24,000 nt of DNA from Massilia atriviolacea (GCF_045016065.1 NZ_CP051166.1:1946003-1970002); one strand, 5' to 3'; positions 1 through 7,781 are shown, counted from the first letter of the stretch. Program-made: numbers and translations. Notes: generated by a model not told the origin, from the letters alone.

Positions 1-1
1 G

Positions 2-2734
2 ATGCAGCGCGTCGAGATCACCGGCTCGTCGATCAAACGCGTCGCCGCTGAAACCGCGCTGCCTGTCACCATTCTCAAACGCGAAGACATCGAGCGTACC
101 GGCGCCACCTCGGCCCAGGACCTGGTCAACCTGATTCCGGGTAACTTCGGCGGCGGCGTTACCGCCAACAACGTCGGCGCCTCCGGCGTGCCGTCGACCG
201 CCAACCTGCGTGCCCTCGGCGCGCGCTACACGCTGGTGCTGCTGAACGGCCGCCGCGTGGCCAACTATGCGGTCGGCAACAATCCGGTCGACCTGAATTC
301 GATTCCGCTGTCGGCCATCGAACGCATCGAGGTGCTGCGCGACGGCGCTTCGGCCGTGTACGGCGCCGATGCGGTGGCCGGCGTGATCAACTTCATCCTC
401 AAAAAAGACTACAAAGGGATGGAAGTATCGGCCTACAAGACCCACGTCGACCAGGGCGGCGGCAACACCAAGAGCTTTAACGTCACGGGCGGCTTCGGCG
501 ACATCGCGACCGACCGCTTCAACGTGCTGTTCAGCGCCAACCACGAAGAAAACGAAAAACTGCGCGCCTCCGACCGCAGCTTCTCGACCACCTCCGTGCG
601 TCCCGACCTGGGCATCAACAAGTCCTCGCCGCGCAACGGCGTGCCCAACCTGAACTTCACCGATTCGCTCGGCAACAAGTACGTGGGCGTGAACCCGTAC
701 CGCTACAACGGTTGCAAGAACGAGGAATTCAGCCTGGTCATCAACAGCGAAAAAGGCTGCGGCACCGACTACGTCAAGTACATCGACCTGATTCCTGAAG
801 CCAAGCACAGCAACCTGGTCACGCGCGGCGTGTTCAAGGTCAGCGACAGCCTGGAACTGTTCGCCGAAGCGGCGTACACCAAGGACAAGATGATCGCGGC
901 GTACTCGCCGGCGCCGTACACCGAGACCATGCGCTATCCGGCCAGCGGCCGTTTCTATCCTAAAACCGTCAAGCTGCCGAAGGGCCTGGTACTGCCTGCC
1001 GGCTACAAAATGCCGAACGGCACCGTGACCACCGCTGAAACCGTCCTCGCCGCCGACATGGATGTGATGCCGACCGGCGACATCACCGGTACCTGGCGCA
1101 CCGTCGCCGGTGGCGGCCGCACCGACCTCAACGAGACCCAGAACACCCGTGTGGTGGTGGGCGCCAAAGGCAATCTGGCCGGCTGGGATTACGAGACTGG
1201 CCTGAGCTACGGCAAGAATGAAGTCGAAATCAGCTTCGGCCCCGGCAAGTTCAGCTACGCCAAGCTGCGTCCCCTGGTGGTTTCCGGTGAAATCAATGTA
1301 TTCGGCTCACAGGACGCGGCCAGCCTGGCCGGCCTGCTCGGCGCCCAGCTGAGCGGCTTCCAGAACGGCGGCGTCTCGACCTCGAAAGAGTTCGATTTCC
1401 GCATGTCCAAGGAAGTGTTCAACCTGCCGGCCGGCGCGGTGGGCTTCTCGGTCGGTACCTCGTACCGTACCGAAAAGCTGACCCAGACCTCGTCCCCGGT
1501 GCTGTCCTCGGGTGACGAAGTCGGCGGCGCCGGTGAAATTCCCGGCGTCAGCGGCGACCGTAAAGTGTTCGGCCTGTTCACCGAAGCTGTTGTCCCGGTC
1601 ATCAAGGACCTGGAGCTGACCGCCGCCGCGCGCTACGACAAATACAAGAACGGTTTCGGCACCGAATTCGACAACCTGAGCCCGAAACTCGGCTTCACCT
1701 ATCGTCCGAGCACCGCCATCATGGCGCGCGGTTCGGTGGCACGGGGCTTCCGCGCACCGACCCTGGTCGACAACCTGAATCCGAAGGCGCTGAACAATAC
1801 CTCGTCCAACTTCAACGATCCGGTCCGCTGCCCGAACGGCGTGCCGGTCAACAGCATCAATCCGGTCGGCGAGCTGCAGGATGAGTGCTCGGTCCAGCTG
1901 ACCACCCAGAACAGCGGCAATCCGGACCTCAAGCCGGAGAAGTCGAAGCAGTACACCCTGGGCCTGGTATTCCAGCCAACCTCGACCATCAGCGGTTCGA
2001 TCGATTACTGGAACGTGAAAATCGACAAGTCGATCAACGCCATGTCGGAAAACACGGTGTTCGGCGATCCGGTTGCCAACGTCAACCAGTTCTACCGTTA
2101 CGATCCGGCCATCGAAGCGGCCACGCCAGGCGCACCAGGCTCGCTGGATAACCCGATCCGCGGCAGCACCAACAAGGACTTCCCGCTCGCCTACGTGGCC
2201 CTGCCACGCGTGAACACCGGCAAGTTCTTTGCTGCCGGCGTCGACCTGAACCTGAACTATCGCCAGAAGATGGGCGACATGGGCACGCTGGGTGCGAACT
2301 TCGATTCGACCTACTACACCAAGCACGGCTACCAGTACCAGGGTTCGCCGGAAGTCAGCGACCTGGGCAACTTCAAGGATTTCGGTCCGACCCCGCGTTT
2401 CCGCCACACCCTGGGCCTGACCTACGGCATCGGCCAATGGACCGGTTCCCTGACCCACAACTACACCAAGGGTTACTGGGATTACACCGATCCGGCGCTG
2501 ATCGGACCGGATTACCCATTGCTGCGCAAGGTCGGCGACTACTCGACCTTCGACGCCACCCTGGGCTGGAAACCGATGAAAAACGTGAGCCTGACCTTCG
2601 GTGTCAAGAACATCGCCGACGAAGATCCGCCATCGTCGCGTAACGGCGCCAACTTCCAGGTCGGCTACGATGCGACCTTCACCAACCCGCTGGGCCGCAC
2701 GTTCTACGCACGTCTGAACTACAAGTTCCTGTAA
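2..2734 (+). CDS. TonB-dependent outer-membrane receptor, 5' end cut by the window edge
   Basis: The frame is open from the window edge. Plug-domain motifs are present (QRVEITGSSIKR, LLNGRR, IERIEVLRDGASAVYGADAVAGVINFILKK), followed by a long beta-barrel region and a C-terminal RLNYKFL. Third-codon positions are strongly G/C-biased. Confidence 0.9.
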   Translation: MQRVEITGSSIKRVAAETALPVTILKREDIERTGATSAQDLVNLIPGNFGGGVTANNVGASGVPSTANLRALGARYTLVLLNGRRVANYAVGNNPVDLNSIPLSAIERIEVLRDGASAVYGADAVAGVINFILKKDYKGMEVSAYKTHVDQGGGNTKSFNVTGGFGDIATDRFNVLFSANHEENEKLRASDRSFSTTSVRPDLGINKSSPRNGVPNLNFTDSLGNKYVGVNPYRYNGCKNEEFSLVINSEKGCGTDYVKYIDLIPEAKHSNLVTRGVFKVSDSLELFAEAAYTKDKMIAAYSPAPYTETMRYPASGRFYPKTVKLPKGLVLPAGYKMPNGTVTTAETVLAADMDVMPTGDITGTWRTVAGGGRTDLNETQNTRVVVGAKGNLAGWDYETGLSYGKNEVEISFGPGKFSYAKLRPLVVSGEINVFGSQDAASLAGLLGAQLSGFQNGGVSTSKEFDFRMSKEVFNLPAGAVGFSVGTSYRTEKLTQTSSPVLSSGDEVGGAGEIPGVSGDRKVFGLFTEAVVPVIKDLELTAAARYDKYKNGFGTEFDNLSPKLGFTYRPSTAIMARGSVARGFRAPTLVDNLNPKALNNTSSNFNDPVRCPNGVPVNSINPVGELQDECSVQLTTQNSGNPDLKPEKSKQYTLGLVFQPTSTISGSIDYWNVKIDKSINAMSENTVFGDPVANVNQFYRYDPAIEAATPGAPGSLDNPIRGSTNKDFPLAYVALPRVNTGKFFAAGVDLNLNYRQKMGDMGTLGANFDSTYYTKHGYQYQGSPEVSDLGNFKDFGPTPRFRHTLGLTYGIGQWTGSLTHNYTKGYWDYTDPALIGPDYPLLRKVGDYSTFDATLGWKPMKNVSLTFGVKNIADEDPPSSRNGANFQVGYDATFTNPLGRTFYARLNYKFL

Positions 2735-2800
2735 TTGCCGGGGTGCGCGGCGGTTGACAGACAGCCACCGCGTATCTTTGCAAGAAACTTGTATGACGTA

Positions 2801-2838
2801 AAAAACCCCGCCGGACGCATGTCCGGCGGGGTTTTTTC
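2801..2838 (+). terminator. Rho-independent terminator after the first TBDR gene
   Basis: Perfect 11-bp stem ccccgccggac (2806-2816) / gtccggcgggg (2821-2831) with loop gcat and a following T6 run. An A5 run precedes the stem, so it could work in both directions. Confidence 0.8.
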
Positions 2839-2947
2839 TTGCCTCCTGTATTTGCGAAATATCAGGGGCTTGATCTGGCTCAAGCTCACCCGACCCGGCG
2901 CACGTAAGCTCTAAAGCGGACTGATCCAGATCCGCTTGGGAGGACAT

Positions 2948-3925
2948 ATGCAAATCGTGCTGGCCAATCCGCGCGGCTTCTGTGCCGGGGTCGAGCGGGC
3001 GATCGAGATCGTCGAGCGCGCCCTCGACGTCTTCGGCGCCCCGGTCTACGTGCGTCACGAGATCGTGCATAACCGCCACGTGGTCGCCGCTCTGCGCGAG
3101 CGCGGCGCGGTGTTCGTCGAGGAACTGGCGCAGGTGCCGGAGCACGGCATCGTCGTGTTCAGCGCGCACGGCATCGCGCCGCAGGTCCGGGCCGAGGCCG
3201 ACGCGCGCCGCCTGCGGGTGTTCGACGCCACATGTCCGCTGGTCGCCAAGGTCCACATGGAGGTCGGGCGCCACGCGCGCGACGGCCGCGAGGTCATCCT
3301 GATCGGCCACGCCGGCCACCCGGAAATCGTCGGCACGCTCGGCCACTACCGCGGCGCGGCCGCGCGCGCCATCCACGTGGTCGGCACTGCCGGCGAGGCC
3401 GAGCGGCTCCAGGTGCAGGACGGGACGCGCCTGGCCTACGCCACCCAGACCACGTTTTCGATCGACGATGTCAAGCCGATCCTGCAGGCCCTGCAAGGGC
3501 GCTTCCCGGCGCTGATCGGGCCGCGCAAGGAAGATATCTGCTACGCCACCCAGAACCGCCAGTCCGCCATCAAGGAACTGGCCGCCAGCTGCGACCTGAT
3601 CCTGGTGATCGGTTCGCCCGCCAGCGCCAACTCGCAGAGGCTGCGGGAAATTGCCGCGCAACAGAACGTCGGCGCCTACCTGCTCGATCACGCCGACCAG
3701 TTGCAGCGCGACTGGTTCGACGGCCGCCACTGCGTCGGCATCACTTCCGGCGCCTCCACCCCCGAAGTCCTGCTCGAGCAGGTGGTGGCGCGCCTGGTCG
3801 CCTGGGGCGCCGGGCCGGTCGTCAACCGGGCGGGCGTGCAAGAGCACGTGGTGTTCGCGCTGCCGCGCGCGCTGGCCGGCGCCGCGCCGCGCGTCGCCGA
3901 ACCCGAACCCGAACCCGAACTTTAA
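2948..3925 (+). CDS. ispH: 4-hydroxy-3-methylbut-2-enyl diphosphate reductase (IspH/LytB)
   Basis: N-terminus MQIVLANPRGFCAGVERAIEIVE is the classic IspH start. The three Fe-S ligand cysteine contexts are present (GFCAGV, ATCPLV, ICYATQNRQ). I prefer ATG 2948, with GGGAGGA at 2938-2944, over the TTG at 2936 used by the track. The C-terminus ends in an EPEPEPEL tail. Confidence 0.95.
   Translation: MQIVLANPRGFCAGVERAIEIVERALDVFGAPVYVRHEIVHNRHVVAALRERGAVFVEELAQVPEHGIVVFSAHGIAPQVRAEADARRLRVFDATCPLVAKVHMEVGRHARDGREVILIGHAGHPEIVGTLGHYRGAAARAIHVVGTAGEAERLQVQDGTRLAYATQTTFSIDDVKPILQALQGRFPALIGPRKEDICYATQNRQSAIKELAASCDLILVIGSPASANSQRLREIAAQQNVGAYLLDHADQLQRDWFDGRHCVGITSGASTPEVLLEQVVARLVAWGAGPVVNRAGVQEHVVFALPRALAGAAPRVAEPEPEPEL
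3899..3919 (+). repeat. In-frame hexanucleotide microsatellite (GAACCC)x3 plus GAA, encoding the EPEPEPE tail of IspH
   Basis: Read directly: gaa ccc gaa ccc gaa ccc gaa, immediately before ctt taa. Confidence 0.85.
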
Positions 3926-3944
3926 CCTCTTGAGGAGAACCATC

Positions 3945-4295
3945 ATGCCCGAGCAAACCGTTTCCATCGTGTCCTGGCCCGAGCAGCCGGCCCGGATCGA
4001 CCATACCTTCACGCTGGACAAGCCGTGCCCGGTGTCGATCTCCTTCGAACCGGCGCCGGCCAACGTGACGCTGTCGAGCGACCCGCAGCGCCCGCTCCAG
4101 GTCAGCATGAACATGCAGCTCGTCGCGCGCGAGCCAGTGCCGGTCTGCATCACCGTGTGCGAACCGATCTGCGCGCGCAGCGACTATACGATCGGCATCG
4201 AGGTGTTCGGCAACCCGTTCGCCAGCATCAGCGTGCGCGGCACCACGCGCCTGTTCGCGTGCCGCGACGACACGCCGACGCCGGTGCCGGGCTGA
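3945..4295 (+). CDS. Hypothetical 116-aa Cys-rich protein, family not recognised
   Basis: ATG 3945 is preceded by GAGGAG (3932-3937) with a 7-nt spacer, 19 nt after the ispH stop. Third-codon positions are almost all G/C. The protein has five Cys including C68-x3-C72-x3-C76 (VCITVCEPIC) and an internal repeat PCPVSISFEP / PVPVCITVCEP. No signal peptide is evident. The track embeds it in the longer ORF 3651..4295. Confidence 0.7.
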   Translation: MPEQTVSIVSWPEQPARIDHTFTLDKPCPVSISFEPAPANVTLSSDPQRPLQVSMNMQLVAREPVPVCITVCEPICARSDYTIGIEVFGNPFASISVRGTTRLFACRDDTPTPVPG

Positions 4296-4336
4296 TACCT
4301 TCCGATATGCGCCACCACCACCAGGAGCCGTGAGCG

Positions 4337-5026
4337 ATGCCAAGCAATGACAGCGACAACATCAGCATGACCCGGGCCGAACTCGATTACCTGATGCGCA
4401 TGGCCGGCAAGACCTCGCGCATCGTGCAGCAGGCCGCCTCGACCCTGGAAGAGGAAATCGCGCTCGGCGTGGCGGCCGCCAAACGGGTCGAAATGCGTTT
4501 CGTGGACGTGGAAAAACTGCGCGCCGCCGACCCGGCCGACGTGATGCAGCGCTTCCGCCGCGATGCGCACGAGGTGGTCGACATCCTGCTCGACATGGTG
4601 GTGCTGGCCAGCAACTCGCTGGGCGCGCTGTCGGAGCGGGTGGTCACGGTGCGTCCCGGCGGCGCGGCGGCGCCGAAGCAGGGCGGCGACGCCACCGCAT
4701 CCTTGAGAATGCCGCAGCCGGTCGCGCCGGGCGGATCGCTCAGCGTGCCGATGACCCTGGAAAACGCGGCCGATGTGCCGACCGACACCTTCCGCCTCCA
4801 CTGCGCCGACCTGCTCAGCGACAGCGGCGCCCGGCTCGCGTCGGCCCAGATCGGCTTCGCGCCGGAGCAACTGGCCATCCCCGCGCGCTCCTCGGCGACC
4901 GTGCTGATCACCGTGACGGTCCCGTCCGATGCCGCGCCCGGCACCTATTCCGGGCTGCTCCTGGCCAGCCAGCTGGAGCAGGTGCGCGCCGTGCTCACCG
5001 TGCAGGTCGAGTCGGCCGGTGAGTGA
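4337..5026 (+). CDS. Hypothetical 229-aa protein with a helical N-terminal half and a beta-sandwich-like C-terminal half, family not recognised
   Basis: ATG 4337 has AGGAG at 4323-4327. G/C3 bias is strong. The C-terminal ~100 aa (GGSLSVPMTLENAADVPTDTFRL...IPARSSATVLITVTVPSDAAPGTYSGLLLAS...VLTVQV) follows the alternating pattern of CARDB / Ig-like beta-sandwich domains. This is pattern recognition, not a search result. No signal peptide is evident. Confidence 0.75.
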   Translation: MPSNDSDNISMTRAELDYLMRMAGKTSRIVQQAASTLEEEIALGVAAAKRVEMRFVDVEKLRAADPADVMQRFRRDAHEVVDILLDMVVLASNSLGALSERVVTVRPGGAAAPKQGGDATASLRMPQPVAPGGSLSVPMTLENAADVPTDTFRLHCADLLSDSGARLASAQIGFAPEQLAIPARSSATVLITVTVPSDAAPGTYSGLLLASQLEQVRAVLTVQVESAGE

Positions 5027-6062
5027 GGCGGCCGGGCGTTCCCGTTTTGTCGAGGCCAGCCTGGCGCGCTACAAGGAAATCACCATGGCGCGCCTGCTGG
5101 ACTACCTGCCCAGCAAGGAGCCGCGCCGTTATCTGTACGACTTGCTGCCCGTGTATCCGCTGCGCTCCGGCAAGGGCTTGCGTCCGGCGCTGTGCATCGC
5201 CGCCTGCTGCGCCTTCGGCGGCGAGGTGCGCCGGGTGCTCGAATCGGCCGTCGCCATCGAGCTGTACCACAACGCCTTCCTGATCCACGACGACATCGAG
5301 GACGGCAGCGAACACCGGCGCGGGCAACCCACCCTGCAGGCCGACCAGGGCCTGGCGGTCGCGCTCAACGTGGGCGACGCGATGCAGGCGCTGTGCATCC
5401 GCCTGCTGCTCAACAACCTGGCCATCGTCGGCCCGCAACTGACCTGGCGCATCGTCAACGAAATCGAGCACATGGTGTGCCAGACGGTCGAAGGCCAGGC
5501 GCTGGAACTGGGCTGGGTGCGCGACAACGTGGCCAACCTGAGCGAGGAAGACTACCTGCGCATGGTGCTCAAGAAAACCTGCTGGTACACCTGCATGCAC
5601 CCGCTGCGCATCGGCGCCCTGGTCGCCAGCGGCGGGGCCGTCGCGCCCGAGCGCTTCGACCGCTTCGGCTACTACATGGGCGCGGCGTTCCAGATCCAGG
5701 ACGACATCCTCAACCTCGACGCCGACGAGGGCAAATACGGCAAGGAAATCAACGGCGATATCTGGGAAGGCAAGCGCACCCTGATGCTGATCCACGCGGC
5801 GGGCCGCTGCGACGAGGACGAAAAACAGCGGATCCGGCGCTTCCTGGCGCTGCCGCGCGGCGCGCGGGAGCAAGCCGAGGTCGCGTGGGTGCGCGCCACC
5901 ATGGACAAGTACGACAGCATCGCCCATGCGCGCAGCTGCGCGCGCCAGCTGGCCGGCGCGGCCCTGCACGAATTCGACCTGATCTTCGGCGCGCTGCCCG
6001 ACTCCGAACACAAGCGCTTCTTGCGCCAGGTGGTGCTTTACATGATCGAACGCGATCTGTAA
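5019..6062 (+). CDS. Polyprenyl diphosphate synthase (trans-isoprenyl diphosphate synthase family, GGPP-synthase-like)
   Basis: The first Asp-rich motif FLIHDDIEDGSEHRRG lies at 5289-5303 (DDIED). The second motif is FQIQDDILN (5700-5714). GKGLRP and GKEINGDIWEGKRT motifs are also present. The likely start is GTG 5019, overlapping the upstream stop (GTGAGTGA). The alternative start is ATG 5085. The track start at 4929 lies inside the upstream gene. Confidence 0.88.
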   Translation: MSEAAGRSRFVEASLARYKEITMARLLDYLPSKEPRRYLYDLLPVYPLRSGKGLRPALCIAACCAFGGEVRRVLESAVAIELYHNAFLIHDDIEDGSEHRRGQPTLQADQGLAVALNVGDAMQALCIRLLLNNLAIVGPQLTWRIVNEIEHMVCQTVEGQALELGWVRDNVANLSEEDYLRMVLKKTCWYTCMHPLRIGALVASGGAVAPERFDRFGYYMGAAFQIQDDILNLDADEGKYGKEINGDIWEGKRTLMLIHAAGRCDEDEKQRIRRFLALPRGAREQAEVAWVRATMDKYDSIAHARSCARQLAGAALHEFDLIFGALPDSEHKRFLRQVVLYMIERDL

Positions 6063-7561
6063 TCGGGCGCGGCGGGCGTATGCTCCTGTGCGCCGGGCCG
6101 CAGCAGCGCCCCGGCCACGCCGCCGCCCAGCTCGAGCGCGCTGCCGGCCACGCCCAGGCCCCAGTCGAGCGCGGCGCGCGGGTGGGCCGCCATCGACAGC
6201 GCCACCCCAGCCGCCGCCGTGCCGGTCCGCAAGCCGAGGCGCAGGCAATGGGCGCGCCCGCGCAGCAGGTGCTGCGCGCCCATGCCCGCCAGCGACAGCA
6301 CCGCCTGCTGCGCGCTCTTGCGCAGGATGTCGGCGCCCATCACGCGGCGCGCCGGCACCAGTCCGGCCAGCACGCCGCCGGTGATGTCGGCGTAGGCGGG
6401 GTCGGCGCGGGCGCGGGCCACGATGATGTGCAGCGCTTCCAGCCAGAGCGGGGTCAGGTGGCGGTTGCGGATCAGCTGCACGATCAGGCGCGCCAGCGCC
6501 ATGTCGAAGCGCAGCTCGCGTTCGATCCGCTGCGCGTAAGGCAGCAGGCCGGCGTGCGAAAAATCGTCGCGCGCGCGGGCCGCGATGAGCGTCTCGGCGG
6601 CCCAGCGCCCGCTCAGCATGGCGTACTGGATGCCTTCGCCGTTGAGCGGGTTGATCAGGCCGGCGGCGTCGCCCGCCAGCAGCACGCGCCGGCCCACGCA
6701 GGGCAGGGCGGCATCGTAGGTGGTCAGCGGCCAGCCCGTTACCGGTCCGCGCAGTTGCGCGTTGCCGAGGCGCGCGCGCAGGGCCGGATCGCTCGTCAAC
6801 AGCTGCAGCATCCGCTGGCGCAGGTGTTCCTCGTTGCGCGGCAAGGTCTCGCGCACCATGCCGATGCCGACATTGGCCGCGTTCGGCCCGGTGGGAAACA
6901 GCCAGTAATAGCCGGGAAAGGTCGCGTCCGAAAAATACAGGTCGCAGCGGTTGCCGGTGTCCGGCAAGCCATCCATGTAGCAGCGCATCGCGACGATGCG
7001 GTTGCGGTCCGGCACCGCGTGCCCGCGCAGCAGGCGCGCCACCACGGAGCTGCTGCCGTCGGCGCCGATCAGGGCCTGGGCGCGCAGGGTGGCGCGGCCG
7101 GCCGGCCCCTTGACCGTCACGCTCACGCCGCCGGCGTCGCTGGCGAAGCCTTGCACGCGGGTGTTTTCCAGCACGCGGGCGCCGGCCGCGCGCGCCCGGT
7201 CGAGGATCCACTGGTCGAGCGCCTTGCGCGCGATGACCCTGCCGTGCGCCGGCATGCCCGCCACGCGCGGGATGGGATGGGTGATCAGGTGGCGCCCGTT
7301 CAGGTACAGCGCGGCCTCGTGGATGATGTTCGTTTGCCGGTAGCCGGGCAGGGCGGCCATGCCGAGGCGGTGCAGTTCGAGCAGGGCGGCGGGGCCGACG
7401 AAGTCGCCGCAGACTTTGTCGCGCGGAAATTGCTGATGGTCGATCAGGAGGACGGCAAAGCCGGCATCGGCCAGGTGGGCGGCCGCAGCCGCGCCCGCCG
7501 GGCCGGCGCCGGCGACGATCACGTCGCCATCGAACGCGGCGGCAATTTTCAGAGTCAGCAT
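6038..7561 (-). CDS. FAD-dependent oxidoreductase of the geranylgeranyl reductase family (507 aa, with a C-terminal extension)
   Basis: The N-terminal dinucleotide fold GDVIVAGAGPAGAAAAAHLADAGFAVLLID is followed by FPRDKVCGDFVGP, as in GGR/MenJ-type reductases. The internal LLAGDAAGLINPLNGEGI motif is typical of the family. About 100 extra residues follow the expected end. Confidence 0.85.
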   Translation of the reverse strand: MLTLKIAAAFDGDVIVAGAGPAGAAAAAHLADAGFAVLLIDHQQFPRDKVCGDFVGPAALLELHRLGMAALPGYRQTNIIHEAALYLNGRHLITHPIPRVAGMPAHGRVIARKALDQWILDRARAAGARVLENTRVQGFASDAGGVSVTVKGPAGRATLRAQALIGADGSSSVVARLLRGHAVPDRNRIVAMRCYMDGLPDTGNRCDLYFSDATFPGYYWLFPTGPNAANVGIGMVRETLPRNEEHLRQRMLQLLTSDPALRARLGNAQLRGPVTGWPLTTYDAALPCVGRRVLLAGDAAGLINPLNGEGIQYAMLSGRWAAETLIAARARDDFSHAGLLPYAQRIERELRFDMALARLIVQLIRNRHLTPLWLEALHIIVARARADPAYADITGGVLAGLVPARRVMGADILRKSAQQAVLSLAGMGAQHLLRGRAHCLRLGLRTGTAAAGVALSMAAHPRAALDWGLGVAGSALELGGGVAGALLRPGAQEHTPAAPDYRSRSIM

Positions 7562-7781
7562 GGCGGGCAGTTCTGGACAGGGAATCGTTCAGTATCCGCG
7601 CCGTGCGCAAGTGCATTGCTGATGTAGCGCAAAAAGCGCACAAAAACGCGTGCGGCGGTAGGGATCCCAAGCGTGGACATACGCCCGCGCGCGCAGTTGT
7701 GCGATCATTGACTGCCGGCCCTGTTCCCTCGGGCAGACATGCGCATCGCGACCCGCTTCCATCCGTTCAAGGAGAATGACC

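Follow-up and report, generated by a model that had tools for sequence, protein, structure and literature searches.

A putatively isoprenoid gene module of Massilia atriviolacea in which a prenyl diphosphate synthase is paired with an uncharacterised two-helix protein

What might a compact set of isoprenoid genes be making when two of its members belong to no recognised family, and how might those two serve the enzymes beside them? The question arises at positions 2948-7561 of a 24-kb stretch of the Massilia atriviolacea genome (GCF_045016065.1 NZ_CP051166.1:1946003-1970002; the whole of this stretch was analysed and is called the window below). Four genes on the + strand, ispH, p116, p229 and the gene for a trans-isoprenyl diphosphate synthase (IDS), follow one another there as one compact apparent unit, and the gene for a geranylgeranyl reductase (GGR)-family flavoenzyme converges on them. 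An earlier note on this DNA had read the genes as one tight isoprenoid unit; our analysis supports that reading, and the enzyme family assignments hold. We propose that p229 supplies a dedicated partner of the synthase. The genes, with the two predicted parts of p229, are as follows.

2948-3925, + strand: ispH, 4-hydroxy-3-methylbut-2-enyl diphosphate (HMBPP) reductase, 325 amino acids (aa), the C5 precursor supply gene
3945-4295, + strand: p116, uncharacterised small protein, 116 aa, probably all-beta
4337-5026, + strand: p229, putative IDS partner protein, 229 aa, helical hairpin plus immunoglobulin (Ig)-like beta-sandwich
4373-4630, + strand: hairpin of p229, residues about 13-98
4697-5008, + strand: Ig-like beta-sandwich of p229, residues about 121-224
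5019-6062, + strand: IDS, geranylgeranyl diphosphate (GGPP)-synthase-like, 347 aa, GTG start
6038-7561, - strand: GGR-family flavoenzyme, 507 aa, convergent with the IDS gene

The evidence that carries the proposal is gene neighbourhood. A profile of p229 run against one genome per GTDB species gave 49 loci, to which two metagenomic contigs were added, and these loci were searched with the proteins of the window. An IDS ortholog (49-67% identity) lies directly after p229, on the same strand, in 47 of the 48 distinct loci with downstream sequence; the single exception, L051, has the weakest p229 match. The estimated distance from the p229 stop to the IDS start has a median of 4 nucleotides (nt), and the two genes, as read from their sequences, are translationally coupled almost everywhere. 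In the window they overlap by 8 nt, GTGAGTGA at 5019-5026, which holds the TGA of p229 (5024-5026) and the GTG of IDS (5019-5021). Sampling in the reverse direction, from the IDS side (P0350 and P0401) and from a short p116 (P0141), found p229 directly upstream of IDS in all cases. The linkage spans about ten bacterial phyla plus archaea. Its proteobacterial hosts are three Massilia species, a Burkholderiales metagenome-assembled genome (MAG), Gallionellaceae, Gammaproteobacteria and Deltaproteobacteria/Syntrophaceae; the other bacterial hosts are Anaerolineae/Chloroflexia, Calditrichia, Bacteroidota/Balneolaceae, Terriglobia/Bryobacterales (Acidobacteria), Binataceae and 14 Micromonospora, and the p229-IDS pair is also present in Bathyarchaeota and other archaea. 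Linkage to isoprenoid genes in other genomes, a point on which the earlier note had staked its proposal, is therefore strongly positive: p229-IDS recurs in 47 of 48 loci and is repeatedly accompanied by p116, by the GGR gene and by a gene for C5 supply.

Some metagenomic proteins carry the two parts in one chain. IDS orthologs with an N-terminal extension (P0375, of 539 aa and with 11 member sequences, P0393, P0394 and P0399) represent fusions of the type DUF2321-hairpin-IDS or hairpin-IDS, DUF2321 being zinc-ribbon-like. When the p229 profile was aligned to P0375 with hhalign, residues 12-89 of p229 matched residues 124-201 of P0375 with a probability of 99.1% and E = 7e-19. In the fusions helix 2 of the hairpin enters the first IDS helix without a linker, and the Ig domain is absent; the fusion locus L059:3387-5006 continues with a LytB gene. 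Nothing argues more strongly for a physical cooperation of hairpin and synthase than the near-universal adjacency taken together with these fusions; at the level of genes the two show the hairpin to be a dedicated IDS partner, in a pairing that is near-obligate and sometimes fused. The pair also occurs in a minimal two-gene form in Micromonospora, a culturable genus, where the partner has 143-166 aa, is hairpin only and contains the motif RxDxHxxxD twice (L037:9944-10375, L049:9956-10456 and 12 more), with p116, the GGR gene and ispH absent nearby. A candidate full-length p229-IDS fusion in L016 was rejected, p229 and IDS being separate open reading frames (ORFs) there with a 24-nt gap.

No Pfam or NCBIfam family matched p229 above threshold, and its profile found nothing relevant among PDB sequences. 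The AlphaFold2 (AF2) model of p229 (predicted local distance difference test, pLDDT, 78.6 overall and above 90 for the sandwich) has long helices at residues 13-54 and 66-98, followed by the Ig-like sandwich at 121-224. Foldseek of this model against PDB returned generic Ig-like sandwiches only (GH123 N-domain, PapD/ASH/MSP), and a Pfam scan of each p229 member gave Ig-like families only (NPCBM_assoc, GH123_N, fn3_5 and the PapD/ASH kind). A word-indexed protein search detected at least 158 relatives of p229, and the hairpin family proved rare, with 238 matches at E <= 1e-3 when the hairpin alone was searched exhaustively with phmmer against 1.84 billion cluster representatives. The hairpin has an invariant block, Q71-R-F-R-R-D-A-H78, V80, V81, D82, I83 and D86, and other invariant residues at L37-E38-x-E40, G44, E52 and R62; of these, D82 and R62 have given way to other residues in the fusions, as has D86 in Micromonospora.

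Searches of PADLOC and PHROGs matched neither p229 nor p116 and gave no sign of defence or phage origin; a scan of viral contigs found no p229, among plasmids tblastn with p229 hit nothing but a single Ig domain of no relevance, and hhalign detected no relation between p116 and p229. As judged from sequence, both are real, uncharacterised protein families: no known family or curated equivalog holds either of them, and the IDS and the GGR fall into known superfamilies only. The module was not described in the literature that we searched. The earlier note had offered carrier, scaffold or acceptor as roles for the two proteins. For p229 the choice narrows to synthase partner or subunit, and a role as acceptor is unlikely because its hairpin is fused to the synthase in nature.

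The synthase scores 193.7 bits with PF00348, and its motifs, DDIED (91-95), RRG (100-102), KKT (185-187) and DDILN (228-232), are all intact. Among 17 IDS orthologs D91, D92, D95, R100-G102, K186-T187, D228, D229 and N232 are invariant. The nearest solved structure is the GGPP synthase of Thermus thermophilus, 1wmw (206 bits). By its motifs, then, the enzyme is predicted to be catalytically intact, and by its nearest structure it is GGPP-synthase-like. The best NCBIfam models, IdsA_Meth, f2_encap_cargo4 and GGPP_syn, all score below cutoff, and the equivalog cutoffs for GGPP synthases are not reached (IdsA_Meth 178.9 vs 468 bits, GGPP_syn 165.9 vs 500, CrtE 87.9 vs 460). Scores are far below those required of IspA (PRK10581 69.3 vs 321 bits; FPPsyn 106.7 vs 275) and of IspB (PRK10888 111.2 vs 412 bits; nonaprenyl 108 vs 600), and on profile scores the IDS is not an ortholog of either. 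What the earlier note had called an archaeal-style synthase is borne out as archaeal/Thermus-style, with PRK10581 and PRK10888 below cutoff. The orthologous group, tied to p229, has a mean column identity of 71% across domains.

As to the length of the product, published work on farnesyl diphosphate synthase (FPPS) mutants bears on the residues at -5 and -4 before the first aspartate-rich motif (FARM). In the 17 orthologs F is invariant at -4 and A is nearly invariant at -5, a pattern that, by analogy with those mutants, we infer to fit a C20 product. The product of the IDS is most likely C20 GGPP.

The convergent gene product passes the GGR superfamily model TIGR02032 (217 bits vs a cutoff of 158.8), confirming the GGR-family reductase of the earlier note. 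Aligned to the digeranylgeranylglycerophospholipid (DGGGPL) reductase of Thermoplasma, 3oz2, it has the catalytic Cys, YxWxFP...GxG and GDAA motifs in register (VCGD/RCGE, GYYWLFPx8GIG/GYIWVFPx8GIG and GDAAGLINP/GDAARLIDP for GGR/3oz2, with VCGD at 50-53, YYWLFP at 218 and GDAAG at 297 of the GGR), and it carries a C-terminal extension of about 150 aa. It is not an equivalog of MenJ (139.6 vs 700 bits), of BchP-ChlP (119.6 vs 343) or of DGGGPL reductase (110 vs 580). Orthologs are 44-57% identical in bacterial loci and 37-49% in two Bathyarchaeota loci, and the gene adjoins IDS in 23 of the 33 non-Micromonospora loci, usually in convergent orientation as in the window.

At the other end of the unit, IspH passes the equivalog model NF002188 (460.5 bits vs a cutoff of 420) as well as TIGR00216 (322.6 vs 187.85), and scores 313.6 bits with PF02401. 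It has Cys12 (RGFCAGV), Cys96 (DATCPLV) and Cys198 (DICYATQN), which we take to be the three ligands of the [4Fe-4S] cluster, with C12, C96 and C197 as the E. coli counterparts, and it is 87-88% identical to the syntenic gene of three Massilia species. The C-terminus, EPEPEPEL, is encoded by a short (GAACCC)n tandem run at window positions 3898-3920 and lies outside the LytB domain. The gene is outside the ileS-lspA context, between TonB-dependent receptor genes, a position that would fit a captured extra copy, the dedicated paralog suggested in the earlier note, as circumstantial evidence; the other hints are likewise indirect, namely the canonical ileS-lspA-ispH in a Gallionellaceae relative and the presence of the module in only three Massilia species representatives.

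In the survey ispH occurs within a few kb of the module in 14 of the 33 non-Micromonospora loci (~40%). Its position varies: upstream of p116 in Massilia, divergent in Gammaproteobacteria, and downstream of IDS in Acidobacteria, in delta-proteobacteria and in the hairpin-IDS fusion locus. The module-linked genes are of two unrelated types, 47-56% and 27-31% identical to the window IspH, and in L060 a type-2 isopentenyl diphosphate (IPP) isomerase (TIGR02151, 386 bits vs 281) takes the place of IspH, in the order isomerase, short p116, p229, IDS, GGR. Because the position varies, because the IspH types are unrelated and because of this substitution, C5 supply is, on the pattern of genes, a recurrent part of the module that has been recruited independently and repeatedly. 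The segment L060:2068-11747, which includes these genes, also holds, divergently transcribed, a second IDS (IdsA-like, 213 bits), two methyltransferases and two proteins of 164 aa and 536 aa without a known family, possibly a methylated-isoprenoid branch; the 111-aa ORF before the second IDS is no homolog of the hairpin.

Another arrangement is seen in a Gallionellaceae MAG (L022:5272-18670), where the canonical ileS-lspA-ispH is followed directly by p229-IDS and then by integrase fragments, RelE, a tyrosine integrase and a DDE transposase. The p229-IDS pair appears to have arrived there on mobile DNA beside the housekeeping ispH. The Massilia IDS is 67% identical to Chloroflexi orthologs and 60% to those of the betaproteobacterial Gallionellaceae, and only three Massilia species representatives carry the module; from the closer likeness to Chloroflexi, the integrases and transposase of L022 and this narrow occurrence in Massilia, we conclude that the module is horizontally spread, as far as sequences can tell.

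The second unassigned protein, p116, matched nothing in Pfam, NCBIfam, PDB, PADLOC or PHROGs. We detected 27 relatives, none with a Pfam domain. They are conserved over the full length, with W11-P12, C68-x3-C72-E-P-x-C76 and S79/Y81 invariant and C106 nearly so, the last lying 2-5 residues from the C-terminus in most homologs; the AF2 model, built on a 27-sequence alignment, is of low confidence (pLDDT 49.6). p116 lies upstream of the p229-IDS pair in about 20 of the 33 non-Micromonospora loci and is present only where the p229 Ig domain exists. The loci of archaea, several of those in Gammaproteobacteria and all of those in Micromonospora lack it but retain p229-IDS.

Larger versions of the module are found in Chloroflexi, Calditrichia, Bacteroidota, delta-proteobacteria, Acidobacteria and others. 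There the order is a ~200-aa protein, a ~1200-aa protein with PKD domains, a ~250-aa 'long p116', p116, p229, IDS and GGR. The ~200-aa protein (L002:5368-5991, L006:1085-1702, L055:1314-1982 and about 15 other loci; absent from the window) is unexpectedly homologous to the thumb region of family-A DNA polymerases, with E = 9e-12 to residues 462-540 of Taq Pol I and about 1e-7 to Pol theta and nu, and is without palm or catalytic residues; such a protein is a strange neighbour in an isoprenoid module, and might be a regulator that binds DNA. The ~1200-aa protein (L054:6007-9657, L002:6043-9657, L057:2490-6107 and others) has no signal peptide, a hydrophobic segment of ~36 residues near residue 500 and three PKD domains. 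The 'long p116' consists of p116 plus a domain that is common to the C-terminus of the ~1200-aa protein (E = 2e-8). Archaeal loci have instead a 260-aa membrane protein with CarboxypepD_reg and PKD and a bPH-like protein of 151 aa. By gene content the Massilia module is a reduced form, without the ~200-aa, ~1200-aa and 'long p116' genes.

In the window the module is bounded and flanked by the following features.

2803-2840, + strand: intrinsic terminator of the upstream TonB-dependent receptor gene, 5' boundary of the operon
2-2734, + strand: TonB-dependent receptor gene bracketing the module
9233-11866, - strand: TonB-dependent receptor gene bracketing the module
12139-14931, - strand: TonB-dependent receptor gene bracketing the module

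The terminator, CCCCGCCGGAC-gcat-GTCCGGCGGGG followed by T6, forms a perfect GC-rich stem of 11 bp with a 4-nt loop and folds at -32.3 kcal/mol (z = -6.2; 0 of 200 shuffles fold as well). Since A6 flanks it, it possibly acts in both directions. No sigma-70-like promoter was detected upstream of ispH, and an Rfam scan found no riboswitch before it, only sub-threshold terminator-like matches. The gaps are 19 nt between ispH and p116 and 41 nt between p116 and p229, and the 3' ends of the IDS and GGR genes share 25 nt. Shine-Dalgarno-like purine runs precede ispH (GGGAGGA), p116 (GAGGAGAA) and p229 (CAGGAGCC). All five ORFs have GC contents at third and second codon positions (GC3 0.90-0.93, GC2 0.41-0.52) that are the coding pattern of this roughly 65% GC genome; overlapping shadow ORFs are without it. 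On rechecking, the coordinates, the two gaps, the 8-nt overlap and the strong preceding terminator given in the earlier note matched exactly, and, as it had also said, no terpene cyclase, UbiA/ABBA prenyltransferase or squalene/phytoene synthase was found among the window ORFs scanned.

The GC content of the module (0.68-0.72) is above that of the flanking receptor genes (0.59-0.63). The remaining genes of the window encode three TonB-dependent receptors, an oligopeptide-type ABC system, a DedA-rhodanese protein and a glucokinase. The window is collinear with M. mucilaginosa, M. rubra and M. aquatica at 1-7596 and from 9179 onward (87-95% identity), and in these three syntenic genomes the segment 7597-9178 is exchanged for unrelated DNA of 0.8-2.6 kb, making it a hypervariable slot with the GGR gene on one side and a gene for a TonB-dependent receptor on the other. 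In M. atriviolacea the slot holds a gene of the RebB/'killing trait' R-body family at 7776-8051 (+; PF11747 94 bits, phrog_32040 82 bits), followed by an ORF of 350 aa at about 8101-9153 (+) that matches no family. Both were considered as members of the unit and rejected, having no counterpart in any related locus, syntenic Massilia included.

We read these data as a conserved, horizontally spread module in which C5 supply would feed a GGPP synthase with a hairpin subunit, and GGR would saturate the product, p116 and the Ig-like domain acting as adaptors; we give this reading a probability of roughly 55%. IspH would make IPP and dimethylallyl diphosphate (DMAPP), which a complex of IDS and p229 would condense to a short all-trans chain, likely GGPP. 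GGR would then reduce at least one double bond of this chain, to yield a product of the phytyl or phytanyl type; it would act on the diphosphate itself or on the chain once an enzyme from another locus has transferred it. A saturated prenyl chain, suggested in the earlier note, remains the most reasonable product. In the complex p229 would be a non-catalytic subunit. Its hairpin would dock on the N-terminal IDS helices, as the fusions suggest, where hairpin helix 2 leads directly into them. The Ig-like domain and p116 would serve together as an adaptor, either binding the hydrophobic product or passing it along, or else anchoring the enzyme, and the ~1200-aa membrane/PKD protein of the full-size modules is a possible tethering point.

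Several observations weigh against this reading. The hairpin has no homology to the small subunits of heteromeric prenyl synthases (Pfam scan of 49 members; PDB sequences), and an invariant block of Arg, Asp and His such as it carries would suit catalysis or the binding of a ligand equally well. The C20 length rests on likeness to GGPP synthases and on the F(-4)/A(-5) pattern taken from mutant studies. In 10 of the 33 loci there is no GGR within 10 kb, and no acceptor enzyme is conserved with the module, so the saturated C20 chain is deduced from enzyme families only. The adaptor role is weakly founded, p116 being absent in about a third of the loci and its structure prediction being of low confidence.

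The same invariant block is what favours the foremost rival explanation, that the p229 hairpin, p116 or both are catalytic on GGPP, as a diphosphatase, a cyclase/synthase or a transferase, and yield a new diterpenoid. Helix 2 has eight consecutive invariants (QRFRRDAH) as well as D82 and D86, helix 1 has L-E-x-E and E52, and together they offer the Arg/Asp/His/Glu chemistry typical of diphosphate-Mg sites; the motif is doubled in the short form of Micromonospora; fusion to the N-terminus of the GGPP synthase is reminiscent of the cyclase-prenyltransferase chimeras that exist in fungi; and no other tailoring enzyme is conserved with the module. However, 80 residues are far below any known terpene synthase or phosphatase fold, the hairpin matches no enzyme family, and D82 and R62 are replaced in the fusions and D86 in Micromonospora. 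We regard a catalytic hairpin as unlikely, if the least unlikely of the rivals. Slightly less likely again is an isoprenylation of the ComQ/ComX kind, in which the IDS homolog or an unknown partner would prenylate an invariant Trp or Cys of p116 and GGR would saturate the attached chain. The superfamily of IDS includes ComQ; p116 offers the invariant W11-P12 and four invariant Cys, of which C106 usually lies close to the C-terminus; and in the larger modules a p116 domain is linked to one that also occurs in the giant membrane/PKD protein. Nevertheless, no elongation motif is lost from IDS, whose 71% column identity across domains is that of a true synthase, p116 is missing from the archaeal, gammaproteobacterial and Micromonospora loci named above and is conserved over its whole length, unlike leader/core precursors, and no ComP/ComA-type or CaaX-type machinery is present.

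Two rivals remain. Tailoring of a quinone, with IDS building the side chain and GGR saturating one isoprene unit of it as MenJ does, draws on MenJ being the second-best NCBIfam model for the GGR (E = 1.3e-40) and on a synthase-reductase adjacency that resembles the mycobacterial locus. The earlier note had drawn this analogy; as membership it fails, the 139.6 bits standing against a MenJ cutoff of 700, with no men, ubi or other quinone genes conserved with the module in about 40 loci. Moreover, IDS scores far below the long-chain cutoffs, F at -4 argues for a short product, and Bathyarchaeota and anaerobes that differ in their quinones have the module as well, all of which makes quinone tailoring improbable. 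Least probable, in our judgement, is a chance meeting of housekeeping neighbours, namely the sole ispH, a general FPP/GGPP synthase and two unrelated hypothetical genes. IspH does pass its equivalog model, and in L022 the pair does sit beside a canonical ileS-lspA-ispH, but the IDS is no IspA or IspB ortholog, its linkage to p229 is near-universal across domains and extends to fusions, only three Massilia species representatives carry the module, and the locus, placed after a terminator between TonB-dependent receptor genes and not at ileS-lspA, differs from its flanks in GC content. The rivals thus stand, in falling likelihood, as catalytic hairpin, p116 prenylation, MenJ-like tailoring and housekeeping adjacency, and we retain the synthase with a non-catalytic hairpin subunit as the preferred reading.

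Short-chain prenyl synthases are usually treated as self-sufficient homodimers. Here a whole orthologous group does not occur without its two-helix partner and is at times fused to it, which points to a hitherto overlooked means by which GGPP synthesis is regulated, localised or extended. The module also joins GGPP synthesis to GGR-type saturation in non-phototrophic, non-archaeal organisms, for which we know of no established role of phytyl- or phytanyl-type chains; what it makes might be a novel lipid or lipid anchor, or might account for isoprenoid biomarkers of soils and sediments. A bolder proposal, which we consider decidedly unlikely, is that hairpin-IDS, p116, the Ig domain and the ~1200-aa protein form a machine that makes a saturated C20 isoprenoid and attaches or delivers it to a protein or the envelope, one conceivable route being the isoprenylation of Cys or Trp residues in p116-type domains; if true, this would be a lipid-anchoring system of Bacteria and Archaea. 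In any case the system is small, with five genes, is present in culturable Massilia and Micromonospora, and gives a functional context to two new families.

Several known systems share parts of this arrangement. Terpenoid clusters with their own copy of a methylerythritol phosphate (MEP) pathway gene or of an IPP isomerase (IDI) resemble it in that a C5-supply gene heads a prenyl synthase operon (IspH, or IDI in L060), but the module lacks a conserved cyclase, prenyltransferase or P450 and has two proteins of unknown family and a reductase as companions. Family 2 encapsulins with polyprenyl transferase cargo come to mind because NF041169 is the second-best NCBIfam model for IDS; its 174.1 bits are far below the 450-bit cutoff, and neither the window ORFs that were scanned nor the related loci inspected contained a gene for an encapsulin or HK97-fold shell. 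No men genes were found in either of these sets. ComQ/ComX-type prenylation would call for a short precursor with a variable core and for a ComQ with degenerate synthase motifs; here the IDS motifs are canonical, and p116 is conserved in full length and absent from many loci. Compared with the GGRs 3oz2, Sulfolobus GGR, ChlP/BchP and MenJ, the window GGR keeps the catalytic Cys, YxWxFPx7-8GxG and the GDAA FAD motifs, yet it is an ortholog of none of 3oz2, ChlP/BchP and MenJ and has the extra C-terminal region of ~150 aa. The IDS shares with 1wmw and with archaeal IdsA/GGPP synthases the first Asp-rich region HDDIEDGSExRRG and the second motif DDxLN, and differs in having A/F, not W/V, at -5/-4 before the FARM.

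The closest concept, by analogy, is that of the heteromeric prenyl diphosphate synthase, of which Bacillus HepS/HepT, Micrococcus HexA/HexB, the small and large subunits of plant geranyl diphosphate synthases (GPPS) and the GGPP synthase-recruiting protein of rice are examples. The known small subunits have the IDS fold or belong to PF07307, whereas the p229 hairpin consists of two helices, matches neither and is followed by an Ig-like domain, and the complex proposed here is deduced from gene fusion and adjacency. What the module has in common with these synthases is a catalytic IDS encoded beside a small, presumably non-catalytic helical partner, an adjacency that holds in 47 of 48 loci and extends to fusions; and in plants the partner steers the GGPP synthase towards a complex that contains GGR.

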